The notes below the pieces were generated by a model. It was not told the origin of the DNA. It searched no databases and saw only the letters and a list, made by a program, of their open reading frames with translations. The translations under genes were made by a program, and so were the position numbers. 64,000 bases of DNA, taken from NCBI GenBank assembly GCA_020048915.1, contig JAIFLU010000223.1, positions 8,067 through 72,066 of the forward strand, read 5' to 3'. Position 1 is the first letter of the stretch; each line of letters starts with the position of its first letter. This DNA is from Bacteroidota bacterium. GTDB taxonomy: Bacteria; Bacteroidota; Bacteroidia; Bacteroidales; JAAUTT01. Below are positions 1-36,446 of this stretch, piece after piece.

Positions 1-94
1 AGCTTGTTTCTATTTACCTTAAACTATATTTAATCGATAAATAGCACCAATACAGCTATACAGGTGTTTGTACACAATGCAATCTTAAAATTAA

Positions 95-151
95 CGTACC
101 GATAAATACCGTACATTTGGTTATAAATACGGAAATATTCTGTACATTTGC
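95..151 (+). promoter_or_regulatory. Putative promoter/operator of the toxin-antitoxin operon
   Basis: Direct repeats ATAAATAC (102-109, 123-130) and GTACATTTG (111-119, 142-150). TACATTTG at 143-150 fits the Bacteroidota -7 box TAnnTTTG, about 16 nt upstream of the ATG at 166. Several GTAC cores could be RHH antitoxin operator half-sites. Confidence 0.3.
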
Positions 152-4881: not shown

Positions 4882-4890
4882 CTGTATGAA

Positions 4891-5844: not shown

Positions 5845-5864
5845 AGATCTTTTTATAACGATTT

Positions 5865-9788: not shown

Positions 9789-9827
9789 TTGAACTGAAAA
9801 ACGACTTTCGAACAAAAGTAACACCCT

Positions 9828-10886
9828 ATGAGAGATAGTAATAAAAATAAAAAGCATCCTTCAAACCTTAAATGGGTTCTCGTATTCGCAGTGATTATTG
9901 GGTGTTTATCTCCTGAAATTCATATTCAGGCACAGGATATCCATTTTTCGCAATTTTATGCTGCCCCTCTGCTTACAAACCCTGCCAATACAGGCATGTC
10001 GGGTGAAAACTTTAGGGTAGCAAATAATTTTCGAAATCAATGGGGGAAAATTGGAGTTCCGTTCCGTACTTTTTATACTTCGATTGATAAAAAGCTGAGC
10101 ATTTCGAACCAGTCATTCGGCATTGGGGGAGCTATAGTTCACGACCAATCATCCGCGTTCAACTTAGCTGCTGATGAGTTTTTAGTTTCGGTAAGCTATT
10201 CTAAAATTACAAACAATCACCAGTTTACGGTAGGACTTCAGCCGGGCTTTGCTTATAAATCGTACAATCTTAACAGTTTGACTTTCGGGTCGCAGTTCGA
10301 TGGGTCGAATGAGCTTTTCAACCCCAACCTTCCCAGCTCCGAAAATAATTTAGCTGGTAGTTTACAGTACTTCGACATGAATGTGGGCATATACTGGAGA
10401 ACACTTATTCGGAATATAATGCCCTCGGCTGGTTTGTCCATAAGTCATTTCTTAAGGCCGGTGGTTACCTTTTCTGCATCCGATCAAACTGTCCGCTTGC
10501 CGGTAAAAATTTCGTTTCATGGTCAGGTTAATATTCCCCTTACCAGCAGAATCGATATTGCTCCAACCTTGCTCTATAGCGCTGTTCCTGGAACCAACGA
10601 ATTACTGCTTGGGGCGATGGAAGGATATGCCTTGAATGATTTCTTTATTCCGGTTAAAAAAGTTTATGCCATTACGATGGTTCGGATAAATCCTTTCAAA
10701 AACATCGATGCGTTGATTCTCGGAGGTGGTGTTAAATTCCCGAAATTCGACCTGGGAATTTCGTACGATATTAATGTTTCCCCCTTGGCGCAAGCTTCTT
10801 ATTTTAATGGCGCCTTCGAAGTATCGTTGATATTTACTGGCGACCGGACTAAGAGGAATGCGAATGAACCTTGTTTTATATACTAA
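9828..10886 (+). CDS. PorP/SprF-family T9SS outer-membrane protein (second copy)
   Basis: DIHFSQFYAAPLLTNPANTG is the canonical PorP/SprF N-terminal motif. It has a signal peptide and lies directly downstream of the second cargo gene. Confidence 0.85.
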   Translation: MRDSNKNKKHPSNLKWVLVFAVIIGCLSPEIHIQAQDIHFSQFYAAPLLTNPANTGMSGENFRVANNFRNQWGKIGVPFRTFYTSIDKKLSISNQSFGIGGAIVHDQSSAFNLAADEFLVSVSYSKITNNHQFTVGLQPGFAYKSYNLNSLTFGSQFDGSNELFNPNLPSSENNLAGSLQYFDMNVGIYWRTLIRNIMPSAGLSISHFLRPVVTFSASDQTVRLPVKISFHGQVNIPLTSRIDIAPTLLYSAVPGTNELLLGAMEGYALNDFFIPVKKVYAITMVRINPFKNIDALILGGGVKFPKFDLGISYDINVSPLAQASYFNGAFEVSLIFTGDRTKRNANEPCFIY

Positions 10887-14308: not shown

Positions 14309-17300
14309 ATGAAAAATTTATCCTTTCTCATACTGGCCGTGCTTTGCCTTCTTTTTCAGGAAGAAACGGATGGCCAAATCCGTCGTGTTACGGGGAAATT
14401 AACTGATCCAACTACCGGTGAGCCCCTCCCGGGAGTGAATGTCTTATTGGAAGGCACTACCACCGGCACGGTAACCAATTTTGATGGTTACTACGAAATT
14501 GATGCACCTGTTGGTTCCGTTCTTTTAGTCAGTTTTGTTGGTTATAGCACTCAGCGTATAGTGGTGGGTCCTGAGCCAGAAAGTGAACGCGTTAAAAGCC
14601 TTACAAAAGTATACCGGCATAGCATCCCCGACAATCCAAATAAGTCTTTATCACCCTACTTCTTTGTACAAAGCGATAATCCATCGTTAGACCGAATGCC
14701 CCTGAAGGCCACCAATGTGGATGTATCCATTGCAGGGGTTATAGCCGACGTAAAAGTAAAACAGTTGTATGTAAACGAAGGAAGGAATACCCTGGAGGCT
14801 ATCTATATTTTCCCCGGTTCTACCAGGGCTGCTGTATATGGCATGCAAATGCAGATAGGCGACCGAATTTTAAAGGCGAAGATCCGCGAAAAAGTTCAAG
14901 CCCGCAAAGAATACGAAACTGCCAAGGCCGAAGGGAAAACAGCTACTCTATTGGAGCAAAAACGCCCTAATGTTTTTCAAATGAACGTAGCTAATATTTT
15001 ACCAGGTGATTCCATTTGGGTAGAGCTTCAATACACAGAATTGATGGAGCCAACCGAAGGGATTTATCAGTTTGTATACCCTACGGTTGTTGGCCCTCGT
15101 TATTCCACCACCGAAGATACCCCGGAAAATAAAGACGAAAAGTGGCTTGAGAACCCCTACCTCACCGAAGGAAAACTGCCAAATTATACTTTTTCCATCA
15201 AAACACACCTGAATGCCGGCGTCCCTATTCAACGACTATCATCCACCAGCCACAAAATAATGGCAACCTATACAAATGCAAGGACAGCAGAAATTGAGCT
15301 GGATCCATTCGAAACTTTTGGCGGTAACCGCGACTATATCCTCAATTACAGTCTTCGCGGCAAGCAAATTGAAACCGGGCTCCTCACCTACCACCATAAC
15401 GATGAAAACTTCTTTCTCCTAATGGTTCAACCGCCAGAAAAGCCAACCGAAAGTGAAATTCCTCCCCGAGAATATATTTTTATTATTGATGTCTCCGGAT
15501 CGATGAACGGCTTCCCGCTGAATGTCTCAAAAAACCTCTTTGAAAGCCTGATTTCGCGCCTTCGAACATACGATAAATTCAATATTTTATTATTTGCTGG
15601 TGGCAATCAGGTTTTCAGTGAAGAATCGGCCAATGCCACCCCCGAAAACATTAAGGATGCCATACGCTTTGTGAATAATCAGAACGGAGGAGGCGGAACA
15701 GAACTACTGCCAGCATTAAAAAGGGCGTTAAACATGCCTGTAGACGAAGAATATGCCCGAACATTTGTAATTCTGACAGATGGGTATGTAAGCGTTGAAA
15801 AGGAAGCGTTTCAGCTTGTGCGAAATAATCGGGCAAAGGCAAATCTGTTTGCCTGCGGAATTGGCTCTTCGGTAAACCGCTATTTAATTGAAGGACTTGC
15901 CAATGCAGGTATGGGAGAACCTTTTATTGCCACCAGCGAATTGGAAGCAAAAAAAGTAGGCAAAAAAATGATTGATATAATTGAAAAGCCTGTATTTACG
16001 CATATCAACATCGATTACCATCACTTTAAAGCTTACGATATTGAACCAACCGTTGCAGCAGATATTTTTGCCGAACGACCACTGATCCTCTTTGGTAAAT
16101 TCGAAGGAAATCCTTCGGGAAACATTACTATCAGCGGGTATTCTGGAAATAAATTAAAATCAATTAACCTTTCAGCCGACAGCTCAACCAAGGAAAGCAA
16201 CCAGGCACTTCGTTATCTCTGGGCGCGAAATAGAATAAAGTATCTGGATGATTTTGCCCAATATTATGAGACTTCGGGAAATTATTACTCTGAAACTAAA
16301 ATACAGCCGAGCGAAGCACACGAAAAACTAATCACCGAACTGGGATTGAAATATAATCTCTTAACCAATTACACGTCGTTTATTGCGGTGGATAGCCTTG
16401 TTCGAAACAAAACAAAACAATACGAAACGGTAAAACAACCTCTCCCTTTGCCGCAAGGGGTATCGAACTTGGCGGTAGGCGATGCAATAAGCCTTAGTCT
16501 AATGCCCGATATTAAAAGTCTCGAAGAAGTAGTTGTGGTTGGGTATGGAACTGTAAGAAAAGCTGATTTGACCAGTGCTGTTTCTTCAGTGAACACCTCG
16601 GAGTTCAGTAATAATGGTAATACCTCAGTACAACAGGTACTGCAAGGGCGCATAAGTGGAGTAGAGGTAATAACCAATCAGGGCGCACCCGGTTCTTCAG
16701 CAAACATACTTATCCGGGGAAATAGCACTATCGGGAGTAGCAACCCACTCTATATTCTGGATGGAGTTCCCGTTAATTCCGAAACAATCACCCAGCTTAG
16801 TCCAACAGAAGTAGAATCAGTCGAAGTATTGAAGGATGCATCATCCACAGCCATTTATGGGGCTCGCGGAGCAAATGGTGTAGTGGTTATTAACAGTAAA
16901 AAAGGGAAGGAACAAAGCAAGTTTCAAATTCAGTTAAATTCAACCGTTGGATTTGATCGGGTGAACAAGCTTCCAAACCGTCAAAATCTATATGCCCAGG
17001 GGCTGACTGAAAATGGGGATACCAAATGGGCAGGAGCCGACCAAAATAATTTGTTTAGCTGGGGACCTGCCATATCAGGACTTACGTACGATGGCAGTAA
17101 TTATTTGTTCGACAAAAACGGGCATCTCATTGCCAACAACGCTACAAACGGCATGAATGCAAAGGTATTTGATCCGTACCAGGTTTTCAAAACTGGCGTA
17201 AAAACTACGAATGAATTTAGCATTTCCTTATCGCACAGGCAGCAAACATTGAGGATTTCGTATACTAACACTCAAAAATCGGGAATTTTGCCAGAATCAA

Positions 17301-19291
17301 ATACCACCCTGAATGCTATAAAACTGCGAAGCAACCATGTTCTCAAATTTGCAAAAATAGGAACCACATTTGCCTACCAGAACAACGATTCGAAAAACAC
17401 GGGCAATCGTTCCTTAAACCCCGGGATGATGTATTCAATTTTGAACAACCCAACAACATTCGATTTATTGAATGGCTTCAACCCAAAAGAAGCTAACCAG
17501 CAAGTTCAGAGCTACATGCTGCCCAATAACCTCCAACGAAGTGCTGCACCAGCATTGGTTAACAATCCCTATTGGATGCTACACCGCAATCTATACAGGG
17601 AAAACAACCGTCAACTGGTAGGAGGATTGGATCTGGATTTCCAACTCATCCATAACCTTCACCTCAAAACCATCAGCAGTTTTGAGCAGTCGGAAAATGA
17701 GATGCAATATGGTATATCCCGAAACTCGGCATCCGTGACGGCAGGTAGCTTATTTTACCGAAACATGAATACCCAAAGTTTCAACCAACGGGTAGAGCTG
17801 AATTTCTCAAAATCGGGCAATCTGGAACTAAACAGCAGCCTTGGGTATCACTTTAACTGGAATAATTCGTCCATTGAAAGAAACAATGGATACGAGCTCG
17901 CAACTGAAACCGGTTATGCCTTAAGCGATGCAAAATTACTCGACACATACTCCTTCAATTTGTACCGCCGGACACATGCCGGATATGGCACGCTGAATGC
18001 AATGTACAATAACCTGGTAGGAATAAACGCTTCCTATCGTCAGGAAAATTCCAGCACCTGGAAGAATTCCGCCGTACCTCTGAAAACATGGTACCTTGGT
18101 GGTTTATTCAAATTCTCCAATCTGCTCAATTCCTCATCCTGGCTAAATAATGGAAAGCTATTTGCCAATGTTAGCTATTGCGACCGGGAATTCACCGCTC
18201 CATTAGCTGATAACGCATGGAATACTTCACAATTCGACCTCAACAATGTCACCAACTTTTATTCGATGCGAGAAGTGAAGGGCTTCGAAAACCTTTCACC
18301 CGAAAAAGTAAGTAAATTTGAAACCGGGTTAACGCTCGATTTTTGGAACAATCGAATTTCGACCAATGTAAGTTTTTATAACTCCATGAGCAAACAATTA
18401 ATAGTCCCATCCATTCAAAATACTGATGTACAATTAATAAACAAGGGCAATTTAAGAACCAAAGGCTTGGATGCCGATCTGACATTTATTGCGCTTCAAA
18501 ATGCCCTGAACTGGAAGATTAAAGCCACATTTACCCGTTACCGGAATAAAGTTACCGGATTAGCTGCGACCGACACTATAAGGATCGCAGGTTTTCAGGA
18601 AGTATCGTCGTGCCTGTTGAACAATCGGCCTTATGGAGTATTGGTGGGATCGAAGTTTCAACGGAACGAACATAACCAGAAGATTATCGGCAATGATGGC
18701 TTTCCTTTGGTTGATTCCAAACCGGGAATTATAGGGAACACCAATCCCGATTGGATTGCCGGTATCGAAAACTCCTTCCGTTGGAAAGGCATTGAACTTT
18801 CCTTTCTATTCGATTTCAAAAAAGGGGGAGATGTTTGGAACGGCACCCGAGCAACCATGAATTATTACGGAACTTCGGAAGAAACAGGGAATGCAAGGAA
18901 TATCAGCGGATATGTTTTTGATGGTGTAACCTCGTTGGGTGAACCGAATATGCTACCGGTCGATTTTTCTAATTCCTCAACCAATACCGCCTTGAATCGC
19001 TGGGTTCGTTATGGGAAAACGGGTGTTGCAGAAGAATCGGTCGAAGACGGCAGTTGGATTCGGCTACGCGAGCTTTCAATATCGTATAGCTTACCTCGGA
19101 ATTTCGTTCAAAAATTAAAAATGAAATCGTTAACAATCACTACTTCCGGACGAAATTTATGGATGCACACCCCTTATACCGGAATCGACCCTGAAACCAC
19201 CCTTACCGGTATGAATAACGGCATTGGCCTGGATTATTTCAACATGCCCAATGTCAGATCGTATGCGATCGGAATAAAGGTTGGGTTTTAA
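14309..19291 (+). CDS. SusC/RagA-type TonB-dependent outer-membrane transporter with inserted VIT-vWA module
   Basis: Signal peptide. A CarboxypepD_reg-like N-terminal extension covers aa 24-86 (GKLTD..GEPLPGVNVLLEGT..GTVTNFDGYYEI). VIT-like region at aa ~117-247. vWA domain with a DxSxS MIDAS motif (DVSGS, aa 394-398, nt 15488-15502). The module ends at NYTSFIAVD (~aa 696). Then comes a SusC TonB-box and plug (LEEVVVVGYG at aa 738, ...YILDGVP...VLKDASSTAIYGARGANGVVVI). The barrel ends in a terminal ...KVGF. Confidence 0.85.
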   Translation: MKNLSFLILAVLCLLFQEETDGQIRRVTGKLTDPTTGEPLPGVNVLLEGTTTGTVTNFDGYYEIDAPVGSVLLVSFVGYSTQRIVVGPEPESERVKSLTKVYRHSIPDNPNKSLSPYFFVQSDNPSLDRMPLKATNVDVSIAGVIADVKVKQLYVNEGRNTLEAIYIFPGSTRAAVYGMQMQIGDRILKAKIREKVQARKEYETAKAEGKTATLLEQKRPNVFQMNVANILPGDSIWVELQYTELMEPTEGIYQFVYPTVVGPRYSTTEDTPENKDEKWLENPYLTEGKLPNYTFSIKTHLNAGVPIQRLSSTSHKIMATYTNARTAEIELDPFETFGGNRDYILNYSLRGKQIETGLLTYHHNDENFFLLMVQPPEKPTESEIPPREYIFIIDVSGSMNGFPLNVSKNLFESLISRLRTYDKFNILLFAGGNQVFSEESANATPENIKDAIRFVNNQNGGGGTELLPALKRALNMPVDEEYARTFVILTDGYVSVEKEAFQLVRNNRAKANLFACGIGSSVNRYLIEGLANAGMGEPFIATSELEAKKVGKKMIDIIEKPVFTHINIDYHHFKAYDIEPTVAADIFAERPLILFGKFEGNPSGNITISGYSGNKLKSINLSADSSTKESNQALRYLWARNRIKYLDDFAQYYETSGNYYSETKIQPSEAHEKLITELGLKYNLLTNYTSFIAVDSLVRNKTKQYETVKQPLPLPQGVSNLAVGDAISLSLMPDIKSLEEVVVVGYGTVRKADLTSAVSSVNTSEFSNNGNTSVQQVLQGRISGVEVITNQGAPGSSANILIRGNSTIGSSNPLYILDGVPVNSETITQLSPTEVESVEVLKDASSTAIYGARGANGVVVINSKKGKEQSKFQIQLNSTVGFDRVNKLPNRQNLYAQGLTENGDTKWAGADQNNLFSWGPAISGLTYDGSNYLFDKNGHLIANNATNGMNAKVFDPYQVFKTGVKTTNEFSISLSHRQQTLRISYTNTQKSGILPESNTTLNAIKLRSNHVLKFAKIGTTFAYQNNDSKNTGNRSLNPGMMYSILNNPTTFDLLNGFNPKEANQQVQSYMLPNNLQRSAAPALVNNPYWMLHRNLYRENNRQLVGGLDLDFQLIHNLHLKTISSFEQSENEMQYGISRNSASVTAGSLFYRNMNTQSFNQRVELNFSKSGNLELNSSLGYHFNWNNSSIERNNGYELATETGYALSDAKLLDTYSFNLYRRTHAGYGTLNAMYNNLVGINASYRQENSSTWKNSAVPLKTWYLGGLFKFSNLLNSSSWLNNGKLFANVSYCDREFTAPLADNAWNTSQFDLNNVTNFYSMREVKGFENLSPEKVSKFETGLTLDFWNNRISTNVSFYNSMSKQLIVPSIQNTDVQLINKGNLRTKGLDADLTFIALQNALNWKIKATFTRYRNKVTGLAATDTIRIAGFQEVSSCLLNNRPYGVLVGSKFQRNEHNQKIIGNDGFPLVDSKPGIIGNTNPDWIAGIENSFRWKGIELSFLFDFKKGGDVWNGTRATMNYYGTSEETGNARNISGYVFDGVTSLGEPNMLPVDFSNSSTNTALNRWVRYGKTGVAEESVEDGSWIRLRELSISYSLPRNFVQKLKMKSLTITTSGRNLWMHTPYTGIDPETTLTGMNNGIGLDYFNMPNVRSYAIGIKVGF

Positions 19292-24435: not shown

Positions 24436-24520
24436 TTTTACCCCTAACCCTCCATAGAATCATCTGAAAATTATTGAATTTCAAAGTCTCCCAATTGGGG
24501 GGGGGGATTAGGGGGTAAAA
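24436..24520. repeat. Imperfect inverted repeat containing a G10 tract
   Basis: TTTTACCCCTAACCCTCC (24436-24453) pairs with GGGGGGGGGGATTAGGGGGTAAAA (24497-24520). It lies just 3' of the last gene of the SusCD operon (stop at 24554, minus strand). Confidence 0.5.
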
Positions 24521-24553: not shown

Positions 24554-25393
24554 TTAAAGCGCTACAAACGAAAATACCGAAGCATTGGGCTTGGCAGATC
24601 GCATTCCGGCCAACGTGTGGTGATATCGCCGGCCAATACCCTGGAGCTTTGCGGCTTCCGAATAACTTACATATTTACTGCTTGCGTTCATAACCTGTAA
24701 GTCTCCGGCAATAGTTCCGTCGGCATTCACCAATTTTATTTTGTAAGTTACATTATTGGTTCCTTGGGTATTAAATTCACTCGGCTTTTTAATTACCTTA
24801 ATCCGCTGCCAACCGGTAGTCTCACCAAACGAAACAGGTTGTCCAACATTTACCATTTCTCCGGTACGGAGATCCTGATACTGATACTGCAATTTGAGTG
24901 AACAAGGCACACCGTCTGTTTCGTAGAGGAAATGATAAAATTTCACATAACAGGCGGAATCAGTATCCGTTGTAATATTCGATTCGTATGGATAACCATT
25001 GTCAAATACAACAGGCTGCTGGTTGAAATCGTGAACAAAAATGTTCTGCTTACCTGCCGCCAGGGTAGTATTTTGATCGTACACCAATGTTGAATCGGTT
25101 CCCTTGTATAATTTAATATTTACATCGCCGGGGTTAGCAGTGAAAAAAGTACCAGCCACCGGAACAGCGCTGTAATTTGATAAAGGTGCTGTTTTGTTTG
25201 AATACAACACGTCATTAATTTTAATTTTATAAATATAGTTGGCCGCATTCGATGTAACAGGAACAACATAATGAATCTGGAATTCTGCTATATCGCTGAC
25301 ACTGGTAGAACCTTTGTAAACGATTTCGTTTTTTTCGCAGGATACTATAAGCGCTACTGCAAAAAATAAACTGATATATTTAACTATTTTCAT
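24554..25393 (-). CDS. Surface lipoprotein of unknown function in the SusE/F-like position
   Basis: The track ORF extends to 25489 and overlaps susD. The start MKIVKYISLFFAVALIVSC at 25393 gives a clean lipobox (LIVSC). The sequence is beta-rich and lies immediately downstream of the SusD-like gene. I do not recognise the family with any confidence. Confidence 0.6.
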   Translation of the reverse strand: MKIVKYISLFFAVALIVSCEKNEIVYKGSTSVSDIAEFQIHYVVPVTSNAANYIYKIKINDVLYSNKTAPLSNYSAVPVAGTFFTANPGDVNIKLYKGTDSTLVYDQNTTLAAGKQNIFVHDFNQQPVVFDNGYPYESNITTDTDSACYVKFYHFLYETDGVPCSLKLQYQYQDLRTGEMVNVGQPVSFGETTGWQRIKVIKKPSEFNTQGTNNVTYKIKLVNADGTIAGDLQVMNASSKYVSYSEAAKLQGIGRRYHHTLAGMRSAKPNASVFSFVAL

Positions 25394-25437
25394 ATACATT
25401 ATTTTTTTATTTGTACTTCTCTGTTTAAACTTAAACA

Positions 25438-27318
25438 CTATTTTGAAGTGGGGAGATCGCCCGGATAAGCAAACCAGGGAATAGAACAATGGTAATTATC
25501 AGCCGTTCCCGATATTGGAAGCAATGTTGATAAGGAGGCTAAATTCCACATATATTCCGAATTATATCGGGGACGTAAACGATAACAGGGCGATCCCTCG
25601 TTTTTGACATTATAGCTCCCTTTCCGGTATTCAACCTGAGCAGGCGCTAAATAAAATCCTTTGTAAACCTTAGTTTCATCCGTATCCAGCTTTTGGTCAA
25701 CCATCGATAGGTTCCATCCGTTACCCGAATTAGGGTAGTTGCCCGAATATTTGATGTCGTAATGATATTTACGCATATCGACCCAAGCTTCCTGGGCTCC
25801 CCATGGGTAAAGAGCAACCCATTTTTGCATCATAATGTGCGAGAGCGAAAAGTCGGCCACCGAAAGCCCATCTACATAAGGCCCTGCTGTATATTGGGTT
25901 GCCAAAGTTGTAAATAAACTCTTGGTAATCTTATCTCCTCCGGTGGGGGTCTTGTTAGTGTTTTCCACAATATATTTGGCAGTAAATTCGATATCGGCTT
26001 TCACCCCTTCTTTAAATGCTGCTAAGGCATTGTCCTTTTGTCCCATTTTCCAGTATGCCTCCGCTAAACAGAATTTTAATTCAGCATAAGTCATCAGGAT
26101 ATATGGGGCATTGTCGCGGTAAAGCCAGCGCCCCATGCCATCGTGGGTAGCTCCAGCATAGGTGGAAGCAGTTTTACGGCCGTAGAAGGATGGGGCAGCA
26201 CCAACAGGCCCATTTGGGCTGGTGAATGAACCGCCATAGTATTTACGGGCTTTAACACTGTCGGCATTGTTTACATACAGGTAATTCGGGTCATCTACAG
26301 TTCCCAGTTTAACGGCTACCCGTGGATCGTAATGTCCGGGGGTATGTACGGCGGTGTCGCAAACAATTTGTTTATCAGCTAATTCCCAAGGATAGTATGC
26401 ATTGCCAGCTACATCCAATCGTTGTCCGGAAGCTTCATCGTATTTAGGGACTGAACCGGTGAAAACCTGCACAGCATAATCATGCTGGAAGTAATTATAT
26501 GTTAAAACCAGTCTGTTTGTACCCCAAAAGTTGTTGTACGCCGCAAATGCTGCTTTATCTGAACCTCCGGCTACTGTAATAGTTGCATCGTCGCTTACTG
26601 ACGCAAATGAATTATTCGCACAAAAAACAAGCGAATCGGCATAATCACTAACGAAATTACTTTTATTAGATAATGAAGCAAAATTACGGACAAGCACACC
26701 GTAGGCAAACTTTTTCCACTTATCCTTATCGCCCGAATAGATATAATCGTTGCTGCTGATTTTGGAACCGTAGCTTGTTTTGTCTTCCATTTCAAGATAT
26801 TTAATGGCTGTATAAGCCCAGGCACGCACCTGTGGGTAGATATCTTTCTGATAATCGTAATCGTGCGATAAAAGTCCGGCCACATACGCATCTTTCATCG
26901 GAAGGTCGCCATGTTCTTTGGTTAATTGGTCCCACGAAAATGCTTTTATAGCATAACCAATACCGGCTAATGTCCAGTTTTCGGCCTTAAGCGACTGGTT
27001 AATGAGGTTTTCTAAGTTCATTCCCTGGTTCCAATAAGACATTCGCCATAATTCACCACCGTTATCGCTTCCTGCACTGTAATAATTGGCAGCAAAAACG
27101 GAAAAGTTTGTGGTTCCCATCATCTGAGTAAGGGGTGCCGTTGCGCGTACATCGTAATACATCCCCTGATAGGCCTGTATTATTCCGGGTAAGTATAAAT
27201 AACCTTCGATATAGTCGGGAGAATCTTCATTTTTATTGACATCGAGATAGTCGTCGCAACTCATGGTTGTAAATAGCAGCGACGCTATTGTTATAGCAGA
27301 AATGAATATTTTTTTCAT
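25438..27318 (-). CDS. SusD/RagB-family nutrient-binding outer-membrane lipoprotein
   Basis: Lipobox (LLFTTMSCDDYLDVN), a typical SusD N-terminus. TPR-like helical composition (ELKFCLAEAYWKMG). It starts 25 bp downstream of the SusC gene. Confidence 0.85.
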   Translation of the reverse strand: MKKIFISAITIASLLFTTMSCDDYLDVNKNEDSPDYIEGYLYLPGIIQAYQGMYYDVRATAPLTQMMGTTNFSVFAANYYSAGSDNGGELWRMSYWNQGMNLENLINQSLKAENWTLAGIGYAIKAFSWDQLTKEHGDLPMKDAYVAGLLSHDYDYQKDIYPQVRAWAYTAIKYLEMEDKTSYGSKISSNDYIYSGDKDKWKKFAYGVLVRNFASLSNKSNFVSDYADSLVFCANNSFASVSDDATITVAGGSDKAAFAAYNNFWGTNRLVLTYNYFQHDYAVQVFTGSVPKYDEASGQRLDVAGNAYYPWELADKQIVCDTAVHTPGHYDPRVAVKLGTVDDPNYLYVNNADSVKARKYYGGSFTSPNGPVGAAPSFYGRKTASTYAGATHDGMGRWLYRDNAPYILMTYAELKFCLAEAYWKMGQKDNALAAFKEGVKADIEFTAKYIVENTNKTPTGGDKITKSLFTTLATQYTAGPYVDGLSVADFSLSHIMMQKWVALYPWGAQEAWVDMRKYHYDIKYSGNYPNSGNGWNLSMVDQKLDTDETKVYKGFYLAPAQVEYRKGSYNVKNEGSPCYRLRPRYNSEYMWNLASLSTLLPISGTADNYHCSIPWFAYPGDLPTSK

Positions 27319-27343
27319 GATATTTTCCTATTAAATTGTTTTA

Positions 27344-30300
27344 TCATTTAAATGTGATGTTTAAACCTACTGATAAGCCTCTTGGACTAGGTAGTGCCCA
27401 AACATCGTACCCTTCGCCACCAACACCTCCGGCCGCTGCCGATACCGTGTTTCCAACAGGATCAAGTCCTGAATAATTGGTCCAGGTAATCAAGTCGTTC
27501 CCTACTACAAAAACACTTGCGTTAGAGATAAGTATTTTTTGCAGCCAGCTGGAAGGGATATTATAAGATAACCTCAATTCCTGCAAATGCAGATAATTAA
27601 CATCATTTTCAATCCAATCCTCATCGCCACCTTCGTAAATTGATGCACCGTATGTTGTATAATTCACAGCGATAGTGTTTTTGGTAGGATTGGCGGTATT
27701 TTCGTTACCATCGGCCAGTACTCCATTAAAAACTACCGGTCCTTGTTCACGTAATTTTACTGATTCCCAACTGGTACCATAGGTCATCATGGTGCGTTTT
27801 GTTCCGTTTACTACCGAAGCCTTGTAACGGCCGGAGAACATTGCCGAAAGGTGAATACCTTTAAAGCTTAAACTGGTTGTTAACCCGAAACGCAATTTAG
27901 GCTCACGGTTCCCAATTACACTCCATTTAGAGTTTTTCATAGGTAAGCCAGTGGTGGGGGAAATTAAAATATCTCCCGCTTCGTTGCGCGTATATGCCAA
28001 ACCTGTTAGGGTAGTGACAGGATTTCCTACCATAATTCCATCGCGAATATTTCCGGAGTTCCATGTATACGCATCGTAATACTCGGTTACATTTTTAGGT
28101 AAACCAACTACTTCCGATTTGGTACCGGAAGCATTAACCCCAACATTCCAGCGGAAACCGTTTGCGGTTCGGATAACATCTCCGTCTACATGAGCTTCCC
28201 ATCCCCAGGTGTCGAACGACCCTACGTTCAGGTTATTTAACACAAAACCTGTGGCATAGCTCAAGCGAAAGCCCTTAACAATCTGATCGGTACACTCTGT
28301 CCAGAAATGAGTAAAGTCAACATTTAAACGGTCATTGAAAAAACGACCCTCGAAACCTATTTCTTTTGATGTTGTAATTTCGGGTCTAAGATTTGGATTT
28401 GGGCCTGTAAAACCGTATTTAAATCCGCCACCAGTTAACCCGGTAGCTTCTAATTGAGGATCGATACTAAGCGGGTCGGTATCCTTACCAACCTGCGCAA
28501 CCGATCCCCGGAGTTTCAAATATGTAATACTGTTGATATTTTTCACAAACGGAAGTTCGGAGAGGACAAATGAACCTTCGATGGCAGGATAAAAGAATGT
28601 CCTGTTTTTTACAGGAAGAGTCGAAGACCAGTCGTTACGTCCGCGAAGGGTAACAAAAGCCATATTGTTATAACCGAGTTCAAATTGACCTGAGAAAGCC
28701 TGAACTCTGCGTTTTGTGGTTGTTTGCTTTGACGACAGGGTTTTTGCATCGCAATTATTGATGGATTGGAAATCGGCCACTAAGAAGTTGGAACCAAACG
28801 ATGCCAGACGGTTTACCCCGTTTTCAACCTGGTGATAACCAACCTGAATGGCAACTGTAAATTTATTAAAGAGCTCTTTGTTATAACCGGCAAGAAGGTT
28901 TAATGTAGGATCGGAAAAGTTTGATTTTGCTATGTTATAAGTACCTGCTCCAGCATTATTTTTAAAATAGTAAGGGTGAATCGAGGTTTGAAAAGTTTGT
29001 GCCCCAACATCCCAACCGGCCTGAGCACGGATAAAAGCATCCCTGAAAGGTGTAATGTTAACCGCTGCCGATGATATGAAACGACTGGACTCATCGTAGA
29101 ATTTATTGTTATACAGACCAAATAAAGGATTCAGAAGATCGGTGTCCGTATAGTAAGCTGGCATACGCATATGGGAGCCATCCTCCTGAAGGTAATTCGA
29201 CATATCGTCAATGTTCGGCCAAATCATCGCCTTGAATAATGGCCCATCGGTTCCCCGGGGCGCTTTATTATTGGACGATTTAATATATTGCATAGACGAT
29301 TCGAAACTCATCCATTTGGTGATCTGAGCCTTACCTGAAAACGAAATGGTCATTCTCTTTAAATCGGTATTCTTTATTGTACCCGTATTATCGAGGAATG
29401 ATGCCGATCCACGGACAGAGATTTTTTCTGTTCCTCCCTCAGCCGAAATATTATGTTTAGAAGTAAAGCCGGTTTGCATTAAAGCATCAATATTATTGTA
29501 AGTTTTTGTTCCCTCGGGAAATAAACTACCATAATGTTTTGTATTATACCAGTTGGTTGTACCATAGGAACCATTGGCATATTTGTTCTGTATTTCCGGA
29601 AAATCGTACGATTTATCCCAACGGAACATATTGCTGTACGTTACCTTACCTTTACCAACCCCTCCCTTTTTTGTAGTGATAATGATGGCCCCGTTTGAAG
29701 CATCCGAACCGTAAAGAGCTGCTGCTGCTGCGCCTTTCAATACGGTCATCGACTCAATATCCTCGGGATTAAAGTCGTTTCCGCGCGACGAGAAGTCTAA
29801 GTTACGAACCGAGAATGCCGCTCCACCGTCAGCCAGGTTAACCGGGTTAAACGTAGAGTTATTCATTGCAATACCATCAACAACATATAAAGGCTGGTTA
29901 TTACCCGATATGGATGTAATACTGCGCAATACCACGGAAGTTGAAGAACCCGGGGCACCGCCACTTGAAGTAACGGTCATACCTGCAACGCGGCCCTGAA
30001 GAGCGGAGATAAAATTATCCCTACCCGATTCGCTAATTTCAGCGGCTTTTACATTCTGAACCGACGACCCAATGGTGCGGGCAACACGCTTCATCCCAAA
30101 CTCGGCTGTAACTACAACTTCGCCCAGGGTTTTCATGTCGGGAACCATGTGAACATCAATATTGGCTGTTCCTGCTACTACTATTTCTTCCGTTACAAAT
30201 CCAATGAAAGAAAAAACAAGCACTTGTCCGTTGGAGACATCGATAGAGTACTGACCATCTATATCCGATACTGTACCTATAGTTGTATTTTTAACAACTA

Positions 30301-30433
30301 TATTGACCCCTATAAGAGGCTCATTGGTTCCAGCATCCGTAATGTGGCCTTTAATGGCAACGTTTTGCGACATTGCGAATTGCGACAGCATTATCCCAAT
30401 TCCGGTTAAACACAAGAATAAAATTGTTCTCAT
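27344..30433 (-). CDS. SusC/RagA-family TonB-linked outer-membrane transporter
   Basis: Signal peptide. CarboxypepD_reg N-terminal extension (IKGHITDAGTNEPLIGVNIVVKNTTIGTVSDIDGQYSI). Plug motifs (LQGRVAGMTV, PLYVVDGI, VLKGAAAAALYGSDASNGAIIITTKKG). The barrel ends in ...NITFK. Confidence 0.9.
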   Translation of the reverse strand: MRTILFLCLTGIGIMLSQFAMSQNVAIKGHITDAGTNEPLIGVNIVVKNTTIGTVSDIDGQYSIDVSNGQVLVFSFIGFVTEEIVVAGTANIDVHMVPDMKTLGEVVVTAEFGMKRVARTIGSSVQNVKAAEISESGRDNFISALQGRVAGMTVTSSGGAPGSSTSVVLRSITSISGNNQPLYVVDGIAMNNSTFNPVNLADGGAAFSVRNLDFSSRGNDFNPEDIESMTVLKGAAAAALYGSDASNGAIIITTKKGGVGKGKVTYSNMFRWDKSYDFPEIQNKYANGSYGTTNWYNTKHYGSLFPEGTKTYNNIDALMQTGFTSKHNISAEGGTEKISVRGSASFLDNTGTIKNTDLKRMTISFSGKAQITKWMSFESSMQYIKSSNNKAPRGTDGPLFKAMIWPNIDDMSNYLQEDGSHMRMPAYYTDTDLLNPLFGLYNNKFYDESSRFISSAAVNITPFRDAFIRAQAGWDVGAQTFQTSIHPYYFKNNAGAGTYNIAKSNFSDPTLNLLAGYNKELFNKFTVAIQVGYHQVENGVNRLASFGSNFLVADFQSINNCDAKTLSSKQTTTKRRVQAFSGQFELGYNNMAFVTLRGRNDWSSTLPVKNRTFFYPAIEGSFVLSELPFVKNINSITYLKLRGSVAQVGKDTDPLSIDPQLEATGLTGGGFKYGFTGPNPNLRPEITTSKEIGFEGRFFNDRLNVDFTHFWTECTDQIVKGFRLSYATGFVLNNLNVGSFDTWGWEAHVDGDVIRTANGFRWNVGVNASGTKSEVVGLPKNVTEYYDAYTWNSGNIRDGIMVGNPVTTLTGLAYTRNEAGDILISPTTGLPMKNSKWSVIGNREPKLRFGLTTSLSFKGIHLSAMFSGRYKASVVNGTKRTMMTYGTSWESVKLREQGPVVFNGVLADGNENTANPTKNTIAVNYTTYGASIYEGGDEDWIENDVNYLHLQELRLSYNIPSSWLQKILISNASVFVVGNDLITWTNYSGLDPVGNTVSAAAGGVGGEGYDVWALPSPRGLSVGLNITFK

Positions 30434-30532: not shown

Positions 30533-31666
30533 TTATTTAATCTTCGTTATGCCAATCCCAGCCCTGTCGGGAAGGGTTACCTTTCCGTCGACGATTTTTA
30601 CGCCATCAAAAATATCATTGGAAATGAGTAAATTACCGTCCAAATCGGCCCAGTCTGTTAAGGGAGAAAGTTGGGCAGCGGCAGAAACTGCACAGGAGGT
30701 TTCGGTCATACAACCTATCATTACTTTCATCCCCCGGGCACGGGCTATATCGGCCATAATATGGGCAGCCCTTAAGCCACCGCACTTCATGAGCTTAATA
30801 TTTATTCCGCTGTAAATTCCGGAGACCGAATTAACATCGCTTACCGTTTGAACTGCCTCGTCGGCAATAATAGGCAATGGGCTGTTCATGGTCAGCCAGG
30901 CAATATTATCTTTTTCTTCTTTCGGCATGGGCTGTTCCACAAATACAACCCCTTGTTCTTTCAGCCAGAAAATCATATCCAACGCCTCTTTCTTATCTTT
31001 CCACCCCTGGTTTACATCCACACACAGAGGTTTGTTGGTGACAGTGCGGATTGTAGAAATCATCTCCTTATCGGTACTGCGTCCCAGTTTTACTTTCAGA
31101 ATTTTGTAGGGGGAAGCTTCGAGCACTTTTTCTTTCACCACTTCGGGACTATCAATTCCAATAGTAAAGGATGTATTAGGGGTATGTTGCGGATTCAGTC
31201 CCCAAATACGGAACCACGGTTGGTTCATGAGTTTCCCGACCAAATCGTGCAGGGCGATATCAACAGATGCTTTTGCCGCGTAGTTTCCGGGACTGATTTT
31301 GTCGACATAGGCCAAAATATCTTCCATAAAAAATGGATTGGAAAATTGGGAAAGATCAACCTGCTTTAAAAAATTACCCGCCGTTTCGTAGTTTTCTCCC
31401 AAATAGGGAGGCATAGATGCTTCTCCGTAACCAATTATGCCATCGTATTCAATCTCTGTAAGCATTACGGGAGTTGTTTTCCGGCTATTCGATGCCAGGG
31501 TAAACACATGCTTCAATTGAAGTTCGTATGGTCTGAACCGAAAAACCATTTTCGTGCTTTTATTTATAAAAAAATCGGCAGGTCCTCCTTTAATTATAGG
31601 CAATGCGCAGAGGGCGCTGCCGGTTATTAGTCCTGTGTTCTTCAAAAAGTCGCGTCGGTTTTTCAT
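30533..31666 (-). CDS. Dipeptide (L-Ala-D/L-Glu-type) epimerase, enolase superfamily, with twin-arginine signal
   Basis: MLE-subgroup catalytic pattern: KVKLG (KxK), DVNQGW, FVEQP, IIADE, NIKLMKCGG. The N-terminus MKNRRDFLKNTGLITGSALCALP fits the Tat consensus (S/T)RRxFLK. Confidence 0.8.
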   Translation of the reverse strand: MKNRRDFLKNTGLITGSALCALPIIKGGPADFFINKSTKMVFRFRPYELQLKHVFTLASNSRKTTPVMLTEIEYDGIIGYGEASMPPYLGENYETAGNFLKQVDLSQFSNPFFMEDILAYVDKISPGNYAAKASVDIALHDLVGKLMNQPWFRIWGLNPQHTPNTSFTIGIDSPEVVKEKVLEASPYKILKVKLGRSTDKEMISTIRTVTNKPLCVDVNQGWKDKKEALDMIFWLKEQGVVFVEQPMPKEEKDNIAWLTMNSPLPIIADEAVQTVSDVNSVSGIYSGINIKLMKCGGLRAAHIMADIARARGMKVMIGCMTETSCAVSAAAQLSPLTDWADLDGNLLISNDIFDGVKIVDGKVTLPDRAGIGITKIK

Positions 31667-31678
31667 TATGTCTTCATT

Positions 31679-32858
31679 TTAATACCAGGGATGGGTTTTG
31701 ATTGACCTGATTCCTTCGGTGTTTTCCGCTCCAATAATTCGCCTGACGTTTATGAGGCTTATTGAGCGGTACTGACTGTAATTTGTCCGGGTACTATCGA
31801 AACTATTAATTCGTACCCTCCCGGAAGAATGGATAAATTCAGAGTCTCCCAGATACATCCCTACATGTGTAATAGCTGGAGATTGATTGCTCGAGGAAGT
31901 ATGGCCAAAAAACAGCAAATCTCCCGGCAAAAAGTTTTTCCAATCTTTTTCAATAGGTATGTCTGTGCCATAATTTGCTTGTTGAGAAGCATCACGCGAA
32001 AGAATATACCAATTTAAAAAATAGACCGTTTTTGTATACCCACTGCAATCGGCCCCCTTTACAGAAGTCCCCCCCCCAGAGATAGGGTATACCTAAAATG
32101 TTTTCGGCAGTTCTAATCAGGTTTTCCGCTTTAATGCCATCGCTTCGCCGCCATGCTTCAAAATTGAGGACATCTTTCTGTTGAATTTTCCCAACCCTTC
32201 CATCAGGAAGGCGAACCAACACCTCTGTTCCTTTCAGGGAAGTTTGCTGAAGAATGCAGCCAGCCACAACATCGCTAACCGGTTTATTGCTTTTTAAATC
32301 GCTTACTATAGCAAATAAAGAAACAACGACTACCCTTTCAGAATTCTGCCATTGGGCCATTTCAAGGTGTTGTAAACCTGCATATGCATCTTTTTCACAC
32401 CAGGCGAGATACCCATCGGGGGTTTGAACAAAAGCCCAATCACTGGTTTCCTTCAAAATCTTCAAAGGAGTGCCCATCAAAGCCTGTGTGATCATTTCTG
32501 CATCGTGCGAAGCCGAAGACCTTAAGTTTGCAACGCTTAATGTAACCATTCCCCAGGGAGACAATACGTTGTCTGGCAAAACCAAAACACTATCGACCAC
32601 AGAATAAAGCGAATCCTGAAGCCGGGTAATTAAAGCATCAAGGGCTTTTTCATTATCTGTTTCGCCCTTTAATAATAATTTCTTCCCTCCCACTTTGGTT
32701 GCCGTAATGGAGAAAACACCCTCCCGGGAATCGGGTACAAATGTATTACCAACTTCCTGTATAATTTTATCGGGCGAATACTCCTCTACACAACTAATTG
32801 CGAGAATAATAGCTATGAATATGAATATTTTTAATGTAGGTAATTTCATTTGATTCAT
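31679..32858 (-). pseudogene. YkfC-like lipoprotein (2xSH3b plus NlpC/P60 gamma-D-glutamyl-L-diamino-acid endopeptidase) interrupted by a frameshift in a G9 tract
   Basis: ORFs 31992..32858 and 31679..31930 are the two halves of one gene. Reading with 8 rather than 9 G at 32069-32077 gives a continuous sequence: ...PYLWGGTSVKGADCSGYTKTVYF...LLFFGH...ITHVGMYLG..FIHSSG.... That sequence has the NlpC/P60 Cys and His residues and totals 392 aa. Lipobox at the N-terminus (LAISC). Confidence 0.8.
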
Positions 32859-33233: not shown

Positions 33234-34463
33234 ATGAAAGCGAAATTTTTATTTTCTTCATTTTTATGCCTTTTTATATATTCCCAAGCTCAGGTAAAAT
33301 CAGGACTCGAAGTACTTACCTCCCATCAATTCCGCGAGCTAGAGCATAAAAAAATTGGATTGATTACCAATCCTACCGGTGTAGATCGGAATTTACACTC
33401 GACGATAGACTTGTTATTTGATTCGAAAAAAGTAAAGCTGGTTGCACTTTTCAGTCCGGAGCATGGTGTTCGGGGCAACTACGAAGCCGGAGAACATGTA
33501 GCAACTTACACCGATATCAAAACAAATTTACCGGTTTACAGCATCTATGGCGGAACCAATAAGCCCACCCCGGCGATGTTAAAAGGAATTGATATTCTCG
33601 TATATGATATTCAGGATATCGGATCGAGATCATATACTTATATCAGCACATTAGGATTAGCCATGGAAGCTGCGGCTGAAAACAATATTGAATTTATGGT
33701 GCTTGATCGTCCCAATCCACTGGGAGGACTAAAAATGGAAGGTTCGCTGGTCGAGCCCGGATTTGTATCGTTTGTAAGCCAGTTCCCTATTCCTTATATC
33801 CATGGCCTCACTATAGGCGAGCTGGCAACATATCTGAACGAAGAAGGGCTGCTTGCCAATAAAGCCAAATGTAAACTAACCGTTATAGAAATGAAGGGAT
33901 GGAAACGCTCCATGAACTTCGAAGAAACCGGATTGCCCTGGGTGCCATCGTCGCCACATATACCTTATGCTCACTCCCCTTATTTTTACCCTGTAACAGG
34001 AATACTTGGAGAATTATATGTAATGAATATTGGTGTTGGCTACACCTTACCTTTTCAATTGGTTGCAGCTCCCTGGGTGAATGCCGACAGTCTCTCGCAA
34101 AATTTAAATAACCTGAAACTGCCCGGCTTGATTTTTCGACCCATTCATTACAAACCCTATTACAGCACCTCCAAAGGGAAAATGATTCACGGTGTTCAAA
34201 TTCATATTGCTAATTTCGATAAAGCTCCTCTTTCGCTTGTTCAGTTCTATATCTTGCAGGGATGCCATACCCTTTGGCCTGACAAGAATGTTTTTGAACT
34301 ATGCGATTCGTCGAGGTTAAGCATGTTCGATAAAGTTTGTGGAACCGATAAAATCAGGACTGAATTTACGAAGACCTTTAAGGTGGATTCTATATTAACC
34401 GTTTGGTCGCAAGGATTGCAAGCGTATAAGCAAAACGCTCGGAAGTATTTTTTGTACAATTAG
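33234..34463 (+). CDS. namZ: DUF1343 / GH171 exo-beta-N-acetylmuramidase (NamZ-like)
   Basis: Signal peptide plus the hallmark DUF1343 motifs GLITNPTGVD, LFSPEHGVRGN, DIQDIGSRSYTYISTL and VLDRPNPLGG. Confidence 0.85.
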   Translation: MKAKFLFSSFLCLFIYSQAQVKSGLEVLTSHQFRELEHKKIGLITNPTGVDRNLHSTIDLLFDSKKVKLVALFSPEHGVRGNYEAGEHVATYTDIKTNLPVYSIYGGTNKPTPAMLKGIDILVYDIQDIGSRSYTYISTLGLAMEAAAENNIEFMVLDRPNPLGGLKMEGSLVEPGFVSFVSQFPIPYIHGLTIGELATYLNEEGLLANKAKCKLTVIEMKGWKRSMNFEETGLPWVPSSPHIPYAHSPYFYPVTGILGELYVMNIGVGYTLPFQLVAAPWVNADSLSQNLNNLKLPGLIFRPIHYKPYYSTSKGKMIHGVQIHIANFDKAPLSLVQFYILQGCHTLWPDKNVFELCDSSRLSMFDKVCGTDKIRTEFTKTFKVDSILTVWSQGLQAYKQNARKYFLYN

Positions 34464-35003
34464 AGGCTGTTTAAAAATGGAACAAAATTATTTTTTAACA
34501 CAGAGAAATCCGTTTTGATCTCAAAAAGAATTCTGTTCCTTGAAAAATAATGCTATTAAATAATTCAGGATATTGAGAAGGTACGGAGGGCTCAGAGTTT
34601 TAGAAATCGCTGGCGATTGCCCCTCCGTGACCTCTATGTCTTCACAAAAAACAACATCGATTAGTCGCTTTTTGTTATATGCCATCTCAATTGTTGCTTA
34701 AGATTCATAATCACTATTGTCCGGTAAAAAACAGGTCGCCGCTATGCGGCTTAGAGCCATTTGTTGTATTCGTTTGTCTACAAACAGGTCGCAGCTAAGC
34801 TGCTTTTTTTAGTCGTGTAGCGACGTCCTGTTTGTAGTAAAAAATATACCCGTCAAAAATAAACCCCAGCGGGGCGACCTGTTTGTAATCCGTTATATTA
34901 CAAGTTTTTGTAAGAATTAACAACTTTTTACCGGACAACAATGATTCATAATTAATTCTCTGTGTTAAATTTAAACAGTTTCTTCGTATCCTAAAAATAC
35001 TTT
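34464..35003. repeat. 540-bp composite of nested inverted repeats and REP-like units
   Basis: Outer inverted repeat: CTGTTTAAA...TTAACACAGAGAA (34467-34507) with TTCTCTGTGTTAAATTTAAACAG (34956-34978). Inner inverted repeat: ATTCATAATCACTATTGTCCGGTAAAAA (34703-34730) with TTTTTACCGGACAACAATGATTCATAAT (34925-34952). Four CTACAAACAGGTCGC-type units sit at 34728-40, 34778-92, 34820-37 (reverse) and 34874-87 (reverse), with adjacent GC hairpins. It lies between convergent genes. Confidence 0.7.
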
Positions 35004-36446
35004 TTATTTAATCCAGAGCACTGAATTTCCCGTGCCATGTTCATTCTCTTCCCAGAGCTTGTTGGTTGGATCGATTATCCATTTCCCATCAACTATATAT
35101 TTATATAAATGTTTCCCGGGTGACAGATAAACCGGAAAGGTCCATTTACCGTCCACTTTCACCATATGATAGCCATCCGTAACCCAATTATTAAAGTCGC
35201 CGGTAACTTTCACCTCGCGGGCATTGGGAAAAGCATCCAGCGAAAAAGTATAGTTCGGTTTAAAGGCAAGGCACGAGTTCACTTCACTCCCATTTCCAGT
35301 AGTGTAGAGGTTTGAAGGATCGGTCATCCAGCGCCCATCCACAATAAACTTGTACTCGTAATTGCCCGAAGCCAGCTTATAAGGCAGTTGCCAACCATTG
35401 GCGGTTTTTTCCATCATCAACTCATTGGGAGCCCAATTATTGAAATTCCCGGCCAGGAATACTCTTTTGGCATCAGCAAATCCTGTTAACTGAAAAACGT
35501 TTTCTTCACCGGTTCCAATTACCGAATTTTCATTTCCTTTTCCGTCCTTACGGCTATTATTGTTGTTGGGGTCTGTTATCCATTCATCGTCCACCAGGAA
35601 TTTATAGGAATACGTACCATCTTTCAGATACAATGGCAACGACCATCCTTCAGAATTAGGTGACATTCTTAGTTCTTTCCTGTTCCAATTGTTAAAGGTA
35701 CCTGCAACAAATACTTTCCGCGACTTCTGGTATCCCTTTAACAAAAATTGAAAGTTTGGACAATACACGACGGAATTATCATTTCCAGCTCCATCGTTCT
35801 CAATCAGCTTATTATTCGGATCGGTCATCCAATTCCCATCTGCAATATATTTGTACAAATATTTGCCTTCGAGCAATGGAAGCTTTACCACCCAACCCGA
35901 ATCGGCCTTCTCCATGGGTTGCTGATTGGGATCCCAGTTATTAAAAGATCCGGCTATATAAACCTTTTTGGATCGCTGAAATCCGGGCAGAAAGAATTGA
36001 GCCTCGCCATTCTGATATTGAAAATTTTGAGGTTTATTAAAATTATTTGCACCATAAATTACTTTTTCCTGATCTACATATCCGGGAGCCACCTGCCAGT
36101 TATCGTCAAACAAAAAAACATCGTTTACATTAAAATGAAAAACAGGTTTATTTTCGATGACTTTTGATAATTCGACTTCCGACTCCGAAATATGGCTGAC
36201 TTCCCAGGAAACACTATCGAGCATAACCTCTGAAACAGCTGAGTTTATTTTTTGCCAAACAGTGCTATCCAGTTTAAAGAGCTTCTCGACCTCTGTTTTC
36301 TGCGCATCCGTCCAACGCAAATCGAGTAAGATTAATATCTTTCCGTTCTCGACCCGGGTAATAGCCGAGGGATCAAATTGCGCCCAACTCGTTGCCGAAA
36401 TCGCAAAAAAGACAAAAAACATTATGTACTTTCTTAAAAATCTCAT
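35004..36446 (-). CDS. Secreted protein with four tandem AMPK-beta/CBM48-like glycan-binding domains
   Basis: Signal peptide. Four repeats follow the pattern V(Y/F)(I/V/L)AG.FNNW.....M.....GW...L.L..G.Y.YK(Y/F)(I/L)(A/V)DG.W..DP.N, which is typical of the AMPK1_CBM/CBM48 family. Confidence 0.7.
   Translation of the reverse strand: MRFLRKYIMFFVFFAISATSWAQFDPSAITRVENGKILILLDLRWTDAQKTEVEKLFKLDSTVWQKINSAVSEVMLDSVSWEVSHISESEVELSKVIENKPVFHFNVNDVFLFDDNWQVAPGYVDQEKVIYGANNFNKPQNFQYQNGEAQFFLPGFQRSKKVYIAGSFNNWDPNQQPMEKADSGWVVKLPLLEGKYLYKYIADGNWMTDPNNKLIENDGAGNDNSVVYCPNFQFLLKGYQKSRKVFVAGTFNNWNRKELRMSPNSEGWSLPLYLKDGTYSYKFLVDDEWITDPNNNNSRKDGKGNENSVIGTGEENVFQLTGFADAKRVFLAGNFNNWAPNELMMEKTANGWQLPYKLASGNYEYKFIVDGRWMTDPSNLYTTGNGSEVNSCLAFKPNYTFSLDAFPNAREVKVTGDFNNWVTDGYHMVKVDGKWTFPVYLSPGKHLYKYIVDGKWIIDPTNKLWEENEHGTGNSVLWIK

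Follow-up and report, generated by a model that had tools for sequence, protein, structure and literature searches.

In YkfC, or dipeptidyl-peptidase VI, SH3b domains are followed by an NlpC/P60 catalytic domain. The catalytic triad of the Bacillus cereus enzyme (BcYkfC, PDB 3H41) consists of Cys238, His291 and His303; gamma-D-Glu is recognised by Tyr226, Trp228, Asp237 and Ser239, and Asp256, in an R/P-R-D motif, is the residue that marks the subfamily (PMC2954226). A YkfB-type epimerase gene adjoins ykfC, and the same arrangement is found in Bacteroides thetaiotaomicron (PMC2954226).

Inactivation of a non-essential gene by slippage of one base in a homopolymer is well known. It has been described for the poly(A) tract of inlA in Listeria monocytogenes (PMC2831843) and for the 7C/8C tract of glpK in Mycobacterium tuberculosis, a mid-gene switch in a metabolic gene (10.1101/717272). 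In these alleles the downstream frame stays intact and reversion is possible in principle; both tract lengths occur among isolates and switching has been measured. The poly-G and poly-C loci of Neisseria, Haemophilus, Campylobacter and Bordetella (PMC5084427, PMC1891110) carry G/C runs of at least 8 within the ORF, and their tracts are conserved between strains, variable in length, usually 5'-proximal and present in dozens per genome. The locus described here is a further instance of the inlA and glpK kind of event and shares the intact downstream frame of those alleles, but a run of nine G (G9) is the only length found and a sister lineage, L008, lacks the tract. It resembles the poly-G and poly-C loci in having a long G run inside the ORF of a probably surface-located protein, whereas none of their other properties was seen.

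The run lies on the minus strand of the window, which is the whole 64-kb stretch of Bacteroidales DNA that was analysed. Positions 32083..32061 of the coding strand read CTC TGG GGG GGG GAC TTC TGT, and the plus strand shows C9 at the tract. The G9 sits within the conserved Y-x-W-G-G active-site motif of an NlpC/P60 gene (Table 1), and the frameshift parts the translated Tyr and Trp from the untranslated Asp-Cys-Ser and both His residues. When one G is removed, a single uninterrupted ORF of 392 aa spans 32858 to 31679; its product reads ...PYLWGGTSVKGADCSGYTKTVYF...GDLLFFGH...ITHVGMYLG...FIHSSG, and the peptide across the junction is ...GIPYLWGGTSVK.... A tblastn search of the window with this repaired protein gave two matches, one in frame -3 (residues 1-269) and one in frame -1 (residues 258-392), and the frames of the N-terminal and C-terminal pieces overlap by 8 + 25 codons around the tract. 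An earlier sequence-only reading of this DNA had placed the run at these coordinates, with a stop 25 codons past it and the split just upstream of the catalytic cysteine, and had claimed that loss of one G would join the two ORFs without a stop and restore the Cys-His-His residues; all of this was borne out, and the three residues align with the triads of 3H41, 3NPF and 3PVQ.

Table 1. Positions of the features of the ykfC locus in the window.
Feature	Position	Strand	Remarks
G9 homopolymer	32069..32077	-	last two bases of Trp261 (TGG), Gly262, Gly263 and one extra G; frameshift site
Truncated ORF	31992..32858	-	288 aa from ATG 32858; 285 aa from ATG 32849 (gene callers' choice)
Out-of-frame tail of truncated product	31992..32068	-	25 codons (DFCKGGRLQWVYKNGLFFKLVYSFA) and TGA at 31994..31992
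Rest of NlpC/P60 catalytic domain	31679..32068	-	129 codons and TAA; +1 frame relative to N-terminal ORF
Lipobox Cys23 codon	32790..32792	-	lipoprotein signal peptide of N-terminal ORF
Catalytic Cys271 codon	32045..32047	-	392-aa numbering; BcYkfC Cys238, by alignment to YkfC
His331 codon	31865..31867	-	BcYkfC His291, by alignment to YkfC
His343 codon	31829..31831	-	BcYkfC His303, by alignment to YkfC
Trp283 codon (Gly to Trp)	32009..32011	-	GGG to TGG relative to L008; 392-aa numbering (280 in 389-aa numbering)
YkfB/YcjG-like L-Ala-D/L-Glu epimerase	30533..31666	-	enolase superfamily, intact; MR_MLE_N/MR_MLE_C
SusC-like TonB-dependent transporter	27344..30433	-	
SusD-like lipoprotein	25438..27318	-	
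Hypothetical lipoprotein	24554..25489	-	last operon gene; the whole rest of the operon spans 24554..30433
NamZ exo-beta-N-acetylmuramidase	33234..34463	+	divergently transcribed; NamZ_N E 8e-86, NamZ_C E 1e-36
Intergenic C10/G10 run	24497..24506		

By itself, the G9 run is statistically unremarkable. Dinucleotide-preserving shuffles gave a mean of 0.56 matches per window, and the three overlapping matches observed were reached in 8 of 100 shuffles. What exceeds chance is that the run falls exactly where the frame of a conserved gene breaks. The run is the sole intragenic G/C run longer than 6 in the window, the C10/G10 run being intergenic, and GGG makes up 19.5% of the Gly codons.

The repaired protein matches the Pfam family NLPC_P60 (PF00877, E 7e-20; MEROPS family C40) and, at residues 108-157, SH3_16 and SH3_3; a match to SH3_YKFC_2nd scored 22.9 bits, under the 27.4 cut-off of that model. 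Residues 99-392 align without a break, through the junction and across both SH3b domains, to two structures of Bacteroides dipeptidyl-peptidase VI, PDB 3NPF (E 2e-60) and 3PVQ (E 7e-59); 3H41 is a more distant match. The segment P-Y-L-W-G-G...A-D-C-S...S-R-D-A-S aligns to P-Y-I-W-A-G...F-D-C-S...P-R-D-S of BcYkfC. Counterparts of Tyr226, Trp228, Asp237, Ser239 and Asp256 are all present, and the counterpart of Ser257 is Ala, as it is in the Bacteroides structures. Cys271, His331 and His343 are invariant among the 43 closest sequences; in an alignment of 121 sequences the Cys and the first His still do not vary, and conservation of the second His is 90% or more. None of the three lies in the translated frame of the G9 allele. 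From these alignments the repaired gene appears to be the Bacteroidota orthologue of YkfC/dipeptidyl-peptidase VI, with the same order of domains, the same triad and the same S1 residues (Tyr, Trp, Asp and Ser). It differs from the described enzymes in an N-terminal extension of about 95 residues with a lipoprotein signal, in being embedded in a SusC/SusD locus, in the +1G that breaks its ORF between the Y-x-W-G-G and D-C-S motifs, and in a Trp that replaces a conserved Gly six residues ahead of the R-D motif.

The gene had been claimed as the first of a peptidoglycan-peptide operon, and its neighbours agree with this: ykfC is followed on the same strand by the ykfB-type epimerase gene, susC, susD and the lipoprotein gene. 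The ATG of the epimerase gene lies 12 nt past the stop of the repaired ykfC and 325 nt past the premature stop. Neither a C-rich stretch like a Rho-utilisation site nor an internal Bacteroidota promoter (TAnnTTTG) was found in this 325-nt untranslated segment. The window as a whole is rich in peptidoglycan-turnover genes.

Homopolymers are the classic place for indel errors, and homopolymer sequencing error was among the explanations that the sequence-only reading offered; the true tract would then be G8 and the gene intact. The G9 is, however, identical in five further public assemblies of this clone, which represent at least four submissions and at least three assemblers: ERZ2286707 (NODE/SPAdes-style contig), ERZ27248460 (k141 MEGAHIT-style contig, 163 kb), ERZ27248459 (k141 MEGAHIT-style contig), JGI 3300033519 and Logan SRR10915309. 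These contigs, which come from differing samples, were retrieved by exact-protein look-up and all span the tract. Four of them match the window at 100% identity over as much as 7.1 kb and the JGI contig does so at 99.73%, so that the G9 copies (99.7-100% identical) are separate sequencing and assembly events but one evolutionary event. The 285-aa truncated product is on record from NCBI WGS JFJP01, JGI, Logan and ENA. The window is 90% coding, with ORFs of 1660, 1307, 1029, 1010 and 1009 aa and no other broken gene, and its twin contigs likewise have none. Four A8/T8 runs lie within uninterrupted ORFs of the window and are consistent across assemblies, and the intergenic C10/G10 run has the same length in three of the other assemblies.

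In the same database, error-prone long-read assemblies often show ykfC-like genes in pieces, and two such contigs were checked (L014 and L015). In contrast to the window, these hold many broken genes, among them Cpn10 and the epimerase, each in two ORFs, and their ykfC-like breaks are not at the W-G-G site; to judge by their 'contig_N' names, they are probably long-read assemblies. The many proteins of about 139 aa beginning MGIPYLWGG, considered as recurrent splits of ykfC-like genes, were rejected as a biological pattern on this account, the two that were checked lying in these contigs with other split genes. Because the same G9 was recovered by different assemblers and as an NCBI WGS product, and because the other genes are unbroken, sequencing error is effectively excluded. 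The G9 consensus is genuine, and an intact G8 gene behind it has next to no chance of being the true state.

The protein collection that was searched held about 15 billion public proteins, and lineages were counted from 90% clusters. Clusters of the truncated protein, the epimerase and NamZ came only from the present clone and from L008 (the Logan SRR29063591 locus), which is 93.6% identical in nucleotides over 4.45 kb. The ykfC of L008 is intact (389 aa; P0122) and is followed by the epimerase gene, as in the window, and by susC. At the position of the tract L008 reads TGG GGA GGT ACT, so that the run is interrupted. Compared with it, the window has A to G, T to G and one extra G, the synonymous A-to-G and T-to-G differences being such that they cannot be polarised to either lineage. 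The indel in the G tract is the sole coding-sequence indel between the two. The next homologue after L008 has 54% identity, and a search of the GTDB species representatives with the repaired protein returned only Thermophagus xiamenensis, at 44% identity, and no conspecific match. A comparison of tract length among relatives, as the sequence-only reading had proposed, thus gave G9 in every assembly of the clone, an interrupted run in L008 and TGG GGG GGT, or G7, in Thermophagus. On this comparison the poly-G run is lineage-specific and not a conserved feature.

Rates of substitution between the repaired window and L008, estimated by the method of Nei and Gojobori, bear on the age of the lesion. 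The dN/dS was 0.135 for the mature N-terminal part (dS 0.15), 0.12 for the 129 codons past the tract (dS 0.27) and 0.039 for the epimerase (dS 0.15). Since dN/dS past the tract is as low as before it, the frameshift is young relative to the divergence of about 6% from L008, and the catalytic part did not evolve neutrally for any sizeable portion of that divergence. The repaired protein keeps 30 of the 30 columns that are invariant across 121 sequences. At the 95 columns with conservation of 85% or more among 119 outgroup homologues, L008 departs nowhere and the window twice. Both departures fall past the tract (2 of 46 columns, against 0 of 49 before it), as would be expected once selection had stopped there, although the numbers are too small for significance. 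One is Phe to Tyr and is also found in seven homologues. The other is the Gly-to-Trp change at residue 283, where all 119 homologues, L008 and BcYkfC have Gly; it is a radical, clone-specific change in the untranslated part. The Bacteroides structures carry Asp at this site, so the position is not universally intolerant.

Recent pseudogenisation, also among the explanations offered by the sequence-only reading, is favoured because the frameshift is present in every sampled copy of the clone, because L008 has an intact gene with an interrupted tract, and because the downstream Gly-to-Trp change is unique. As in a pseudogene, the ORF is disrupted in reality relative to intact orthologues. We put a probability of about 0.65 on a recent +1G slippage mutation, fixed in the clone, that left a null allele or young pseudogene and is reversible in principle. 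Both Gly codons of Y-x-W-G-G would have become GGG in one lineage, giving G8 together with TGG; replication slippage would then have inserted one G to give G9, and the insertion would have become fixed in a clone that occurs in many metagenomes. All that the cell would make is an SH3b lipoprotein stub of 285/288 aa that lacks Asp-Cys-Ser and both His residues, and the phenotype would be null for this enzyme.

The same gene could be a contingency locus in which G9 is the OFF state and G8 the ON state of a probably surface-exposed YkfC-like lipoprotein, and premature termination in the OFF state may also lower expression of the downstream epimerase and SusCD genes. With nine bases inside an ORF, the run is as long as a contingency locus needs, for which some 7-8 bases in a promoter or an ORF suffice, and falls within the range of proven poly-G switches. 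The downstream frame is wholly open, keeps all catalytic residues and has the low dN/dS given above, which is how a switchable gene would look as well. The mature N-terminus, C-V-E-E, resembles the acidic surface-export signal of Bacteroidota lipoproteins, and this also counts for switching. Against it stands the lack of any length polymorphism: G9 is found in the window and in the five other assemblies, although assemblies give the consensus only and would hide G8 if it were the minority form within a sample. Exact look-up among the 15 billion proteins found none of the G7, G8 and G10 products (from both starts), nor the G11 product (from the 32849 start only), nor the 83-aa product of the downstream ORF; a search with the catalytic domain only gave no in-frame fragment of this domain above 62% identity. 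The tract is not maintained, L008 having GGA GGT, and since it encodes an active-site motif, G8 is the sole possible ON length. It lies at codon 262 of 392, two-thirds into the gene, whereas regulatory homopolymers are preferentially 5'-proximal (PMC2831843). The Gly-to-Trp change at an otherwise invariant Gly downstream of the tract also counts against switching, and the other long G/C run in the 64 kb is intergenic and invariant, so that the region is unlike the genomes that carry contingency loci. To our knowledge, invertases drive the phase variation that has been described in Bacteroidota, and our literature searches found no homopolymer-based case in this phylum. Slippage on a run of nine G is raised in every bacterium and G8 revertants must therefore appear here too, but this is chemistry and not evidence of a switch. 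Adaptive phase variation, which the sequence-only reading had set beside error and pseudogenisation, is thus unsupported, with no length polymorphism and no conservation of the tract, and we regard it as unlikely. Its fuller form, a homopolymer switch that toggles a surface muropeptide endopeptidase and, by premature termination, the SusCD uptake operon, is improbable. If it were true, one clone of environmental, non-pathogenic Bacteroidales would keep 'scavenger' and 'non-scavenger' subpopulations, and if reads held G8/G9 mixtures the locus would be a rare Bacteroidota candidate for phase variation by a homopolymer.

Other routes would give the G9 allele a product of some use. Independent expression of the catalytic domain was rejected: upstream of the tract the C-terminal frame stays open for just 8 codons, and the first start codon of any kind (ATG, GTG or TTG) in it is the TTG at 31930, past the catalytic Cys. 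Some enzyme might be made by recoding, with RNA polymerase dropping one G or the ribosome shifting +1 (or -2) on GGG GGG G. After a shift, tRNA-Gly or the nascent RNA would again find a perfect match on the homopolymer, and the frames overlap around the tract with the downstream frame intact. The slippery run is accordingly there, but a stimulator is not: RNA structure around the tract was nothing unusual (z = +0.64), and a frameshift-stimulating structure was rejected on that value. In the 0 frame, the A-site codon that follows the run is GAC, which is neither a stop nor rare, and the frameshift is not conserved, the 119 homologues and L008 all being single ORFs. Efficient transcriptional slippage in bacteria is documented chiefly for A/T runs, which also counts against recoding, and we consider it very improbable. 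The 285-aa lipoprotein might instead have been kept, and loss of catalysis selected, as a non-catalytic binder of peptidoglycan peptides for SusCD. Its ORF retains the signal peptide, lipobox and SH3b domains, and the fixation of G9 in all samples despite the frequent reversion expected suggests that the loss is not costly. Such a truncation is without known precedent, however; SH3b1 of YkfC contributes to the active-site pocket and does not act alone (PMC2954226), the 25-residue hydrophobic out-of-frame tail is likely to be destabilising, and the frameshift is too young for a signature of selection. To this reading we attach scarcely any weight.

On the preferred reading of a young, clone-fixed null allele, a widespread clone of uncultured Bacteroidales would recently have lost the endopeptidase step of peptidoglycan-peptide salvage and kept the epimerase, the transporter and NamZ. 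Reversion is easy, yet G9 is the consensus in every sample, which suggests that where this clone lives it is no worse off, or even better off, for having lost the enzyme. The locus is also a worked example of how a genuine homopolymer frameshift can be told from an assembly error with public assemblies alone, by replication across assemblers, an intact sister lineage, a control tract and dN/dS flanking the break. In NlpC/P60 enzymes the W-G-G motif (TGG GGN GGN), which is universally conserved, may be a built-in hotspot of poly-G runs and slippage; the G7 of Thermophagus illustrates how readily such a run arises.

The stretch from 19472 to 49560 of the window is a peptidoglycan-scavenging island. 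It encodes an AmiA-like amidase, SusC/SusD, a YkfB-like epimerase, the split YkfC and NamZ, together with a beta-lactamase-fold protein, an SSF symporter, a GHL10 protein, a GH9 and polysaccharide deacetylase fusion, an AmpG-like MFS transporter and a SpoIID-like protein. Other features of the window are listed in the table.

Features of the window within and around the island
Feature	Window position	Description
1660-aa protein	14309..19291	CarboxypepD_reg, VIT, VWA and TonB-dependent-receptor Plug domains
480-aa protein	35004..36446	four AMPK1_CBM/CBM48-type modules in tandem, of the kind that binds glycogen or starch
Two type IX secretion cargo genes	2752..10886	709 and 1307 aa; PKD repeats and CHU_C sorting domain
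G10 run	24497..24506, within 24436..24520	C10 on the operon strand; intergenic
112-nt difference cluster	34547..34658	positions 9..120 of the JGI 3300033519 contig

The conserved W-G-G motif of NlpC/P60 enzymes naturally lends itself to seeding poly-G tracts. Proteins of about 139 aa that begin with 'MGIPYLWGG' are numerous in the database but are not enzymes in their own right; the two that were checked are C-terminal pieces of broken ykfC-like genes (L014 1729..2920; L015 2107..2917). The breaks in these two genes lie elsewhere than the W-G-G site, and both contigs carry further split genes. The intact gene of Thermophagus xiamenensis has TGG GGG GGT at the homologous W-G-G codons, which makes a G7 run (L007 4716..4722).

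The ykfC remnant of the window carries TGG (Trp) at 32009..32011; the corresponding codon of the sister lineage is GGG, and 119 of 119 homologues encode Gly there. This is a radical, clone-specific substitution in the untranslated catalytic part. Also within the remnant, contigs from two different assemblies, ERZ2286707 and JGI 3300033446, have adjacent ends, at 31831/31832; the two may derive from a single read set of low coverage (2.6) that was assembled two times.

Besides the G9 tract of ykfC, the intergenic G10 run is the window's sole G/C run of more than 6. It lies about 48 nt past the stop codon of the last operon gene, is the same in three other assemblies, and makes up one arm of an inverted repeat (ACCCCCUAAUCC... 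/ ...GGAGGGUUAGGGGU), which is imperfect and whose fold was not significant (z -1.45).

Variation between the window and the JGI 3300033519 contig, another assembly of the same clone, is concentrated downstream of NamZ, where 13 of the 14 differences fall within 112 nt; the other 5 kb hold a single SNP. The cluster resembles either the edge of a recombination event or a hypervariable patch.

No catalytic domain was detected in the 480-aa protein with tandem binding modules. The domain fusion of the 1660-aa protein is unusual among outer-membrane transporters. Each of the two type IX secretion cargo genes is followed by a PorP/SprF gene, forming two pairs.
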